Shown here: positions 55,832 through 58,851 of the stretch, piece after piece
How positions within the stretch are numbered: position 1 is the first letter of the stretch
How the letters are laid out: each line of letters begins with the position of its first letter
Source: Escherichia coli
GTDB lineage: Bacteria > Pseudomonadota > Gammaproteobacteria > Enterobacterales > Enterobacteriaceae
Length of the DNA: 64,000 nt
Assembly: GCF_022846255.1 (NCBI RefSeq)
Contig: NZ_AP025682.1
Reading direction: 5' to 3' (one strand)
Translations under genes and position numbers: made by a program
The notes under the pieces: generated by a model
What the model saw: only the letters and a program-made list of their open reading frames with translations
What the model was told of the DNA's origin: nothing
Database searches by the model: none

Positions 55832-57130
55832 ATGGCTGAAAGTACTGTAACGGCAGACAGCAAACTGACAAGTAGTGATACTCGTCGCCGCATTTGGGCA
55901 ATTGTGGGGGCCTCTTCAGGTAATTTGGTCGAGTGGTTCGATTTCTATGTCTACTCGTTCTGTTCACTCTACTTCGCCCACATCTTCTTCCCTTCCGGGA
56001 ACACGACGACTCAACTACTGCAAACAGCAGGTGTTTTTGCTGCGGGATTTCTGATGCGCCCAATAGGCGGTTGGCTATTTGGTCGCATAGCCGATAAACA
56101 TGGTCGCAAAAAATCGATGCTATTATCGGTGTGTATGATGTGTTTCGGCTCACTGGTTATCGCCTGTTTGCCAGGCTACGAAACAATCGGTACCTGGGCT
56201 CCGGCATTATTGCTTCTCGCTCGTTTATTCCAGGGATTATCCGTTGGCGGAGAATATGGCACCAGCGCCACCTATATGAGTGAAGTTGCCGTTGAAGGGC
56301 GCAAAGGTTTTTACGCATCATTTCAGTATGTGACGTTGATCGGCGGGCAACTGCTAGCCCTACTGGTTGTCGTGGTTTTACAACATACCATGGAAGACGC
56401 AGCACTCAGAGAGTGGGGATGGCGTATTCCTTTCGCGTTAGGAGCTGTGTTAGCTGTTGTGGCGTTGTGGTTACGTCGTCAGTTAGATGAAACTTCGCAA
56501 CAAGAAACGCGCGCTTTAAAAGAAGCTGGATCTCTGAAAGGATTATGGCGCAATCGCCGTGCATTCATCATGGTTCTCGGTTTTACCGCTGCGGGCTCCC
56601 TTTGTTTCTATACCTTCACCACTTATATGCAGAAGTATCTGGTAAATACTGCGGGAATGCATGCCAACGTGGCGAGTGGCATTATGACTGCCGCATTGTT
56701 TGTATTCATGCTTATTCAACCACTTATTGGCGCGCTGTCGGATAAGATTGGTCGCCGTACCTCAATGTTATGTTTCGGTTCTCTGGCAACCATTTTTACC
56801 GTTCCTATTCTCTCAGCATTGCAGAACGTTTCCTCGCCTTATGCCGCTTTTGGTCTGGTGATGTGCGCCCTGCTGATAGTGAGTTTTTATACTTCAATCA
56901 GTGGAATACTGAAGGCTGAGATGTTCCCGGCACAGGTTCGCGCATTAGGCGTTGGTCTGTCATATGCGGTCGCCAATGCTATATTTGGTGGGTCGGCGGA
57001 GTACGTAGCGTTGTCGCTGAAATCAATAGGAATGGAAACAGCCTTCTTCTGGTATGTGACCTTGATGGCCGTGGTGGCGTTTCTGGTTTCACTAACATTG
57101 CACCGTAAAGGAAAAGGGATGCGGCTTTAG
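55832..57130 (+). CDS. kgtP: Alpha-ketoglutarate:H+ symporter KgtP (MFS, 432 aa)
   Basis: Translation recognised; immediately downstream of the rRNA operon. Confidence 0.95.
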
Positions 57131-57450
57131 TGACGGGTCAGTTGCCAGACGGTATAGCCGGTGCTTGCACCGGCGATATCCCAGGCAAAATCCTTCCAGC
57201 TCCAGCCGCTCCCCTCAGGGCGGCTATCCCAAAGCTCTTTTGACGCCCCCAGACTGACAGAGAACATCAATCCAAACATGGCACTGCGATCCCGGCTCAT
57301 CCCCTGATGCTGTGAATATTCATTTCCGGCGGCGGAAAGCATCGCCGAGGCGATAAAGTGTTGAGCTTTATCCTGCCCGCTCCAGCTATCGTTAGCCATA
57401 TGGCTGCATCCAGAAAGTAACAATAGCGAACAGACAAAAAGAATACGCAA
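57127..57450 (-). CDS. yfiM: Lipoprotein YfiM (107 aa)
   Basis: TTG start at 57448-57450 with GGAGG 7 nt upstream; lipobox LLSGC; the ORF-track start 7 codons upstream lacks a ribosome-binding site. Confidence 0.75.
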
Positions 57451-57470
57451 AACGTGGCCTCCAAAAAACA

Positions 57471-57491
57471 AACCCCGTACAGGACGGGGTT
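57471..57491 (-). terminator. pssA intrinsic terminator
   Basis: Hairpin AACCCCGT-ACAGG-ACGGGGTT with a U-run on the minus strand, directly after the pssA stop and just upstream of the yfiM ribosome-binding site. Confidence 0.65.
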
Positions 57492-57495
57492 GTGA

Positions 57496-58851
57496 TTACA
57501 GGATGCGGCTAATTAATCGGTCGATGCGGATACGGCGCAAACGGCGGATGAGTTTACGAACCTTCACCGGATAATCGGCAATACTTTGCAGATCGCGGTA
57601 GTGCTTAACGATGGTGGTATGCTCGCGGATCAGATCCAGTTCTTTCTCTCGCTGTGGCGCAAGCTCCAGTTGCGGATCGTGGATCAAAATGGCGTTTTCC
57701 AGATCCAGACGCCAGGCGCGCGGGTTCAGGTTATTACCGGTGATCAACATCCACTTATCATCAACCCACATCCCTTTCAGGTGATAGGTGTTGTCGTCAT
57801 CTTTCCATAACCGAACCACTAACTGGTCAGTATTGACGTAATACTGCAAACGGCTCAGGAAACGACGCAGATTGATCTCATAGAGATAAGGCAATGCGCC
57901 AATTATCTTGAAAGGTTCATCTTCCGGAATGTAGAAGTCATTCGCGGTTTTATCACCAACAATAATTTCGACCTTTTTCCCTTCGCGCAGCAACTGGATA
58001 ATATTGCGCACAAGGATTGCTGGCAGGTTGAAGTATGGCGTACAGATGGTTAGTTTCTGCTCGGCACAAGGCATAAGATGGAAAATGGTCTTGTTCAACA
58101 GACTCGATTTCCCCAGCCCCACTAGCGGCGTTACGGAAAGCTGATCGTTGTCGGCATCGCCCTGGAAATGATAAGCGGCATCACGCAGCTCCTGGCGGAA
58201 CAGGCGAATGTCGTTCTTGATTTCCGGGCTTTTTGGCCGATTAACATCATCCAGACGATTAACGCCGCGGCCATTCATAATATTCTGTGTAACCCATTCA
58301 AACATAATGTCTGACATCTTACGGTTACGGATCAGATGATAACGGTCGTAGCGATATTTATCGTGCTGATGCAGGTAAACATCGTTCAGGCTGGCACCGC
58401 TATAAAGTACGCTATCGTCGATGATAAAGCCTTTAAAGTGCAGAACACCAAGGGCTTCACGGGTATTGATTGGAACGCCATAAACTGGAACATCTACGCC
58501 CGGATTTTCCTGCGCCATGCGGCAGTACCAGTCAGCGTTAGTGTTAGATGCCGCAGCGCCAATGCGTCCACGTTGTGCACGATGCCAGTCGACCAGCACC
58601 CGTACATCCAGTTCCGGACGCTGCCTTTTAGCCTCATACAACGCGTTCAGAATGCCTTTGCCACCGTCATCCTGTTCGAGATACAGGGCGACAATGCAAA
58701 TGCGCTGCTTCGCGCTGGCTATTTTTTCCAGCAGCGTCTCCCGGAAGTCGGCGGGAGCGTAAAAGAAATCGACATCATCAACTGATTGAGAAATCTTGGG
58801 TAGTTGGGCAAGGTGTTGTTGATGTTTATTACGCTTAAATTTTGACAACAT
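57496..58851 (-). CDS. pssA: Phosphatidylserine synthase PssA (451 aa)
   Basis: Translation recognised; two PLD-type HxK motifs. Confidence 0.95.
   Translation of the reverse strand: MLSKFKRNKHQQHLAQLPKISQSVDDVDFFYAPADFRETLLEKIASAKQRICIVALYLEQDDGGKGILNALYEAKRQRPELDVRVLVDWHRAQRGRIGAAASNTNADWYCRMAQENPGVDVPVYGVPINTREALGVLHFKGFIIDDSVLYSGASLNDVYLHQHDKYRYDRYHLIRNRKMSDIMFEWVTQNIMNGRGVNRLDDVNRPKSPEIKNDIRLFRQELRDAAYHFQGDADNDQLSVTPLVGLGKSSLLNKTIFHLMPCAEQKLTICTPYFNLPAILVRNIIQLLREGKKVEIIVGDKTANDFYIPEDEPFKIIGALPYLYEINLRRFLSRLQYYVNTDQLVVRLWKDDDNTYHLKGMWVDDKWMLITGNNLNPRAWRLDLENAILIHDPQLELAPQREKELDLIREHTTIVKHYRDLQSIADYPVKVRKLIRRLRRIRIDRLISRIL

Follow-up and report, generated by a model that had tools for sequence, protein, structure and literature searches.

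In Escherichia coli, the lipoprotein gene yfiM is probably expressed by read-through of a leaky intrinsic terminator that lies inside an operon, between yfiM and the upstream gene pssA. We strongly infer co-transcription of the two genes, and likewise infer the level of read-through. Read-through of this kind would account for the expression of a widely conserved, uncharacterised lipoprotein gene that lacks its own promoter, at a low level that is tied to pssA, and such a link agrees with a recent proposal that the product of PssA is what YfiM acts on. The junction is a cleanly conserved case of a well-known arrangement; it involves no new mechanism and leaves the general view of gene regulation unchanged.

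Anatomy of the pssA-yfiM junction

The genes pssA and yfiM and the hairpin between them all lie on the minus strand of the window, i.e., the whole stretch of 64,000 nucleotides of E. coli DNA that was analysed (Table 1). The intergenic gap amounts to 45 nt in the RefSeq annotation of both Nissle 1917 and K-12 MG1655, and is taken up by the hairpin (21 nt), the U-tract (8 nt), the Shine-Dalgarno (SD) sequence (5 nt) and, for the remainder, short spacers. Read on the minus strand, the tail at 57470..57463 is TGTTTTTT, with the hairpin on its 5' side and GGAGG on its 3' side; a spacer of 7 nt (CCACGTT) then separates GGAGG from the TTG of yfiM, and the distance from the U-run to the yfiM start codon is 12 nt, most of it SD sequence. 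An earlier note on this DNA, drawn from the sequence alone, had described a pssA terminator hairpin whose U-run stands just before the SD and TTG of yfiM on the same strand, and both the sequence and the RefSeq start agree with that description. The same note had put GGAGG within about 10 nt of the U-run: the closeness is right, but the distance is not, the actual gap being 0 nt.

Table 1. Features at and around the pssA-yfiM junction, in window positions
Feature	Position	Strand	Description and basis
pssA CDS	57496..58851	-	phosphatidylserine synthase, 451 aa; ORF list, RefSeq annotation of the identical Nissle 1917 sequence, Pfam PLDc_2 and PLDc
pssA stop codon TAA	57498..57496	-	minus-strand sequence
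Spacer TCAC, pssA stop to hairpin, 4 nt	57492..57495	-	minus-strand sequence
Terminator hairpin AACCCCGT-CCTGT-ACGGGGTT	57471..57491	-	8 bp, 5-nt loop; terminator scan, folds, covariation
U-tract UGUUUUUU, 8 nt	57463..57470	-	sequence and terminator scan
SD GGAGG of yfiM, touching the U-tract	57458..57462	-	sequence; SD-like motif in relatives
In-frame upstream TTG	57469..57471	-	ORF-list start of yfiM, not the real start; ORF list against RefSeq
yfiM start codon TTG, annotated	57450..57448	-	RefSeq CDS coordinates; equivalent start in homologues
yfiM CDS	57127..57450	-	107-aa 'YfiM family lipoprotein', lipobox LSGC, Pfam DUF2279
kgtP, convergent	55832..57130	+	stop overlaps yfiM stop by 4 nt (57127-57130); ORF list and RefSeq

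The hairpin has the sequence expected of an intrinsic terminator, which calls for a G+C-rich stem-loop (here five of the eight pairs are G-C, with an energy of -11.4 kcal/mol) and, directly on its 3' side, a U-tract of about 7-9 nt (here 8 nt); when the nascent RNA is folded up to the U-run, the minimum free energy (MFE) structure and the centroid structure both contain the hairpin. Its position is also that of a terminator, 4 nt past the pssA stop codon, and relatives share this placement together with compensatory changes in the stem. A scan for terminator motifs does not on its own rise above chance in this region (a single site over 2.4 kb, with a shuffle expectation of 2.0), and the hairpin is taken as real because of its position and conservation, not because of the motif scan. 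The possibility that it belongs to a repeated element was discarded, as its sequence occurs as a single copy in the window. The junction is equal base for base in K-12, and the 600 bases around it are 100% identical to Nissle 1917 and are found in 5425 of 5426 complete E. coli genomes.

The start of yfiM requires a correction with respect to the ORF list, which opens the gene at 57471 because of its rule of taking the first start after a stop. The TTG at 57471..57469 begins at the last paired base of the stem, in the 3' arm, lacks an SD and does not recur in other genera, in agreement with the remark in the earlier note that the ORF-track start sits in the terminator stem. Judged by comparison with other genera, where the start deduced from homology is equivalent to 57450, the ORF-list start is an artefact, and one practical result is that the ORF-based yfiM start is corrected. 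An older annotation of yfiM (b2586) had a gene of 273 nt, with the start further downstream (orthologue table, Kim 2012). The N-terminus of YfiM is a lipoprotein signal with a lipobox.

Conservation of the junction and ownership of the hairpin

With PssA as the query, 80 loci of Enterobacteriaceae were retrieved, and yfiM follows pssA directly in 75 of them. Two of the other five lie on contigs that end too soon downstream of pssA to tell if yfiM follows (L023 and L068), and in three (L066, L075 and L079) the hairpin leads straight into kgtP. The parts come in one order in all of the 75 yfiM-bearing loci: the pssA stop codon and a short spacer are followed by a G+C-rich hairpin, a tail rich in T, a purine run that resembles an SD, and the start codon. 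The dimensions are narrowly kept as well. The gap between the genes measures 39-56 nt (median 44); the stop codon is separated by 2-6 nt from the first paired base in 70 of 75 loci (median 5) and by 5-9 nt from the G-C core in 71; at least 6 T occur among the first 8 nt past the G-C core in 73; and the T-rich tail before the SD is 7-13 nt long, 8 nt being the commonest length. The SD-like purine motif reads GGAG in 48 of the 75 loci and ends 5-7 nt from the start codon in 68. As for the start codon itself, ATG is found in 48 loci, GTG in 22 and TTG in 5; TTG is confined to Escherichia, GTG is used in Citrobacter and Salmonella, and ATG in the remaining genera. Within Escherichia, two further loci (L002 and L005) carry a TCTG spacer for the TCAC of the window, which lengthens the stem, and have 5 nt instead of 7 between SD and TTG, with 6-8 T in the T-run.

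The stem sequence changes from genus to genus while pairing is preserved. Its arm is AACCCCGT in Escherichia, GGCCCTGTC in Enterobacter and GCCCCGC in Klebsiella and Raoultella. In a MAFFT alignment of 76 junctions, with slid partner columns and 500 column shuffles as controls, 91.3% of stem cells are paired across the 76 sequences (against 40-51% in the slid controls), five of the eight pairs show changes on both sides, and none of the 500 shuffles reaches the observed covariation score. The same layout, with pssA and yfiM adjacent, occurs in Salmonella enterica and Shimwellia blattae. Among more distant YfiM homologues, one of 60% identity keeps the succession of pssA, hairpin, T-run, SD and yfiM, in a gap of 77 nt with a longer, compound hairpin, and another of 47% identity is preceded by an unrelated gene at a gap of 2 nt. 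The gene order is conserved among relatives, as in operons with an internal partial terminator, pssA and yfiM being adjacent in 75 of the 80 loci, in Salmonella, in Shimwellia and next to the 60%-identity homologue. In two cases the terminator has eroded next to a retained yfiM: Pluralibacter gergoviae (L084) has a gap of 30 nt, a hairpin reduced to a 5-bp stem and the tail TTATT, and L083 has the short tail CTTTC. Going by these two loci, the terminator is dispensable.

To which of the two genes does the hairpin belong? The three loci without yfiM, which include Yokenella regensburgei ATCC 49455 (L075) and a Pluralibacter metagenome-assembled genome, or MAG (L079), still have a hairpin and a T-run a few bases past the pssA stop codon, with the 3' end of the convergent kgtP immediately after the hairpin; a hairpin and T-run are also present in L023, the longer of the two short contigs. 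Because loci without yfiM keep both elements, the hairpin belongs to pssA and yfiM sits behind it. The stem of L075 is flanked by A6 and T6, and from their sequences the hairpins between pssA and kgtP in L066, L075 and L079 look like shared bidirectional terminators. They resemble the known bidirectional terminators of convergent genes, in that L075 and L066 have, between the stop codons of pssA and kgtP, a single hairpin with flanking runs of A and T; the window differs from these, since yfiM separates the hairpin from kgtP there and no U-run is present on the hairpin's kgtP-sense side. Presence of yfiM varies within one species label, as another genome labelled Yokenella regensburgei has yfiM after pssA. 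In E. coli SCU-306 (NZ_CP053231.1), 70% of the 601-base junction query is found in one piece, the record has matches at two places, and what it annotates in place of yfiM is a 'hypothetical protein'; the yfiM region seems disrupted.

RNA ends, promoters and alternative readings

Published RNA 3'-end data from K-12 bear directly on the junction. Adams et al. 2021 (PMC7815308) list position 2724116(+) as a Rho termination region classed 'primary, pssA', with a score of 3.05 and p = 3e-5, and this position corresponds to window position 57462, the first G past the last U of the U-tract. Counts in that study are 3'-end reads in 800-nt windows, and solely the most significant position per 800 nt is reported. 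Around 2724116(+), the untreated sample gave 179 reads upstream and 30 downstream, and the sample treated with bicyclomycin 90 upstream and 46 downstream (PMC7815308). Without treatment the downstream window, which spans yfiM and some 430 nt antisense to kgtP, therefore holds about 17% of the upstream reads. That the step falls just where the U-run ends agrees with an accumulation of 3' ends at the terminator, and the counts for this Rho-listed region indicate that some sense RNA extends beyond the terminator, at a lower level, but the step may be due in part to Rho acting downstream and not to the hairpin. The rise under bicyclomycin suggests that Rho normally stops read-through RNA in the stretch antisense to kgtP, which is not translated. 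Speaking against the read-through model, the study's curated Term-seq list shows no pssA 3' end under any of its three conditions. Taken together, the compensatory stem changes, the persistence of the hairpin in genomes without yfiM and the K-12 step at the end of the U-run support the view of the earlier note that the hairpin is the terminator of pssA.

Nothing in the gap resembles a suitable promoter. In E. coli no TANNNT hexamer is positioned to give a transcription start site (TSS) in the stretch between the hairpin's 5' arm and the SD, and the nearest -10 candidate, TGTAAT, spans the pssA stop codon and lacks an A at position 2; for want of a suitable -10 hexamer, a TSS inside the gap was rejected for E. 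coli. As in operons with an internal partial terminator, the two genes are co-oriented and the gap between them is free of promoter-like sequence, and the contention of the earlier note that there is no room for one holds, the 45 nt being filled. That note had further proposed that yfiM is expressed either by read-through or from a promoter in the pssA 3' coding region. Read-through is supported, but the two do not form alternatives: a promoter within pssA also needs read-through of the hairpin, because the hairpin lies downstream of the pssA stop codon.

A promoter of this kind, in the 3' coding region of pssA, might nevertheless supply most of the yfiM mRNA, in transcripts that still pass the hairpin, and we consider this unlikely. 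Promoters inside genes are common in E. coli, and the 2.4 kb scanned, which include all of pssA, contain a single promoter-like site on the minus strand, CTGCCA-17-TATTAT at 58026..57998, inside pssA and 500 nt upstream of its stop codon. This site is weak, with 9 of 12 matches, and promoter-like sites are no more numerous in the region than in shuffles (3 found, 3.1 expected). Third-position entropy in pssA, calculated over 75 species, is flat across codons 300-451 at about the gene mean of 1.06 bits, with no sign of synonymous-site constraint, and over codons 270-451 it lies at or above the gene mean, with nothing conserved beyond the protein. A conserved promoter or RNA element in the 3' half of pssA was rejected on account of this flat entropy and of the weakness and distance of the only site; and even a functional promoter there would leave read-through needed.

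Another reading is that the terminator is efficient, that yfiM is silent or nearly so in E. coli, and that the hairpin serves only the formation and stability of the pssA mRNA 3' end. It can appeal to the weakness of TTG as a start codon and to convergent kgtP transcripts, which run antisense across yfiM, the pair being listed as an excludon (PMC12288877). We regard it as quite improbable, for several reasons. YfiM is intact, with an amino-acid identity of 72-95% across genera, its SD and start codon are kept at a fixed spacing in about 75 species, and of 5426 complete E. coli genomes 5423 carry the gene. Some sense 3'-end reads do fall downstream (30, with 179 upstream; PMC7815308), and a yfiM knockout produces small lambda plaques (PMC2900299). 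The papers mentioning yfiM that were consulted do not treat its transcription.

One could also imagine that a promoter sits across the pssA stop codon and the hairpin and starts the yfiM mRNA in or after the 5' arm, so that no terminator is formed and the leader is very short. A TANNNT hexamer (TAATAT or TAATCT, for example) does arise from the stop codon and the bases following it in 18 of 75 other species, with a nominal TSS 3-7 nt into the stem. No such hexamer stands there in E. coli or K-12, where TGTAAT lacks the essential A at position 2; the -35 regions are poor, the hexamer is missing from most genera and the architecture is conserved regardless of it, which makes this reading very improbable. 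Finally, it is scarcely credible that the SD is paired with bases before the hairpin and that yfiM is translated only when a ribosome finishing pssA opens this helix: the E. coli MFE fold does pair GCC..UCC of the last pssA codons with GGAGGC, and single-sequence folds of several genera pair the pyrimidine-rich 5' flank with the SD, but the stop and start codons are 45 nt apart, and the flank-SD duplex has a mean energy of -3.54 kcal/mol over 75 loci, while shuffled 5' flanks (-3.89) and flanks permuted between species (-3.59) pair with the SD at least as well, so that an SD-masking helix with translational coupling was rejected by these shuffle and permutation tests.

Regulation of the terminator by a dedicated RNA element was likewise rejected. 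A search of Rfam gave no family match, besides one weak chance match to a microRNA family, below threshold and elsewhere in pssA; in the nascent-RNA folds no structure competes with the hairpin, and no upstream CGGGG is able to compete with the stem. Together with the flat synonymous sites at the pssA 3' end, these results speak against a regulated attenuator, a riboswitch or an antiterminator.

Probable read-through, related systems and the kgtP side

According to the favoured reading, a leaky terminator between co-transcribed genes, most polymerases arriving from the pssA promoter, or from further up the row trxC-tapT-patZ-pssA, would stop at the U-run and leave a pssA mRNA with a protective 3' hairpin. 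A minority would read through and carry yfiM, whose SD begins with the first base after the U-run. Translation of yfiM would then be independent, from a strong SD and a weak start (TTG in Escherichia), and the leaky terminator and the weak start together would hold YfiM far below PssA. A ribosome finishing pssA close behind the polymerase would probably cover the 5' arm of the hairpin and should favour read-through, because the pssA stop codon lies only 4 nt before the stem. There is no terminator for yfiM itself, because the kgtP stop overlaps the yfiM stop, and read-through RNA, having no terminator after yfiM, would run antisense into kgtP, where Rho probably ends it.

Partial intrinsic terminators inside operons are well known in E. 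coli: T1, between rpsU and dnaG, is one, and the rplL-rpoB attenuator another. These share with pssA-yfiM an intrinsic terminator between co-oriented genes, a gap without a promoter and weak downstream translation signals, here the TTG of yfiM; a dependence on read-through, with a low, fixed ratio of downstream to upstream product, would also be common to both. They differ in that at pssA-yfiM no spacer separates SD and U-run, the gap is 45 nt in all, and no processing sites or extra promoters are known.

A second group for comparison is that of terminators repressed by ribosomes. In the work of Li et al. 2016 (PMC4824070), a stop codon was brought closer to the tR2 terminator, from 28 bp to 5 bp ahead of it; termination dropped from about 90% to less than 10%, and came back when translation was uncoupled. 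As in these systems (and in the pyrBI attenuator cited in PMC4824070), the pssA stop codon at 4 nt before the stem lies inside the roughly 10-15 nt over which a terminating ribosome extends; in E. coli this is well within the spacing of about 10 nt between stop codon and stem that characterises terminators occluded in this way. The systems differ in that lambda tR2 was placed on a plasmid behind a strongly translated reporter, and in that the short spacing of pssA also occurs in loci without yfiM. Because of its occurrence in those loci, the short spacing between stop codon and hairpin is not evidence of selected read-through. Moreover, coupling of transcription and translation requires high translation activity, and about half of the transcriptome seems to be partly uncoupled (PMC13322969); at a modestly expressed gene, ribosome occlusion may be weak.

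A stricter version of the same idea, in which the lead pssA ribosome blocks the hairpin and yfiM is transcribed only by polymerases closely followed by a ribosome, would turn the junction into a translation-gated valve, a proposal that we put forward tentatively and hold to be rather doubtful. If true, the amount of YfiM would be tied to the actual rate of PssA synthesis, and the U-run would double as an A/U-rich landing site ahead of the SD. The context of the proposal is that YfiM is a lipoprotein of the Lipocone family, whose predicted target is the serine head group formed by PssA. A conserved five-gene operon of thioredoxin, DTW, acyl-CoA ligase/GNAT, PssA and YfiM-1 is described in the Lipocone paper (10.1101/2025.01.14.632903), which is also the source of the proposal on the serine head group; the row trxC-tapT-patZ-pssA-yfiM of the window is this five-gene operon.

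The read-through reading also has a practical side: indels at the 3' end of pssA, or at the much-used insertion site between yfiM and kgtP, can alter the expression of both yfiM and kgtP. In the ExcludonFinder list (PMC12288877), yfiM-kgtP appears as an excludon overlap, with stops overlapping by 4 nt and kgtP 3' ends antisense in yfiM; this concerns the 3' end of yfiM rather than the pssA-yfiM junction, and any mutual repression of yfiM and kgtP is hypothetical. In other genera, yfiM and kgtP abut or stand 4-40 nt apart.

On its own strand, kgtP has no terminator outside yfiM (+ strand, window 57127-57215). Its K-12 3' ends in Term-seq, at 2724397 and 2724366 on the minus strand of that genome (PMC7815308), correspond to window positions 57181 and 57212, antisense in yfiM. 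The end at 57181 lies 7 nt past a 7-bp G-C hairpin, GCCGGTG-CTTG-CACCGGC, at 57157-57174 on the + strand; this hairpin is the antisense of the YfiM codons A-G-A-S-T-G, and its GCCGG..CCGGC palindrome is present in many, not all, genera. A strong Rho-dependent region has been reported at K-12 2723742(-), with a score of 19.0 and p = 9e-91 (PMC7815308), which falls at about window position 57836 on the + strand, antisense in pssA. It thus seems that kgtP read-through RNA crosses yfiM and the hairpin and is ended by Rho antisense inside pssA.

At the other end of pssA, codons 1-30 (58762-58851, minus strand) have a third-position entropy of only 0.26-0.38 bits over 75 species, against the gene mean of 1.06, a strong added constraint that fits either the reported overlapping small ORF pssL (bioRxiv 10.1101/511675) or structure in the start region.
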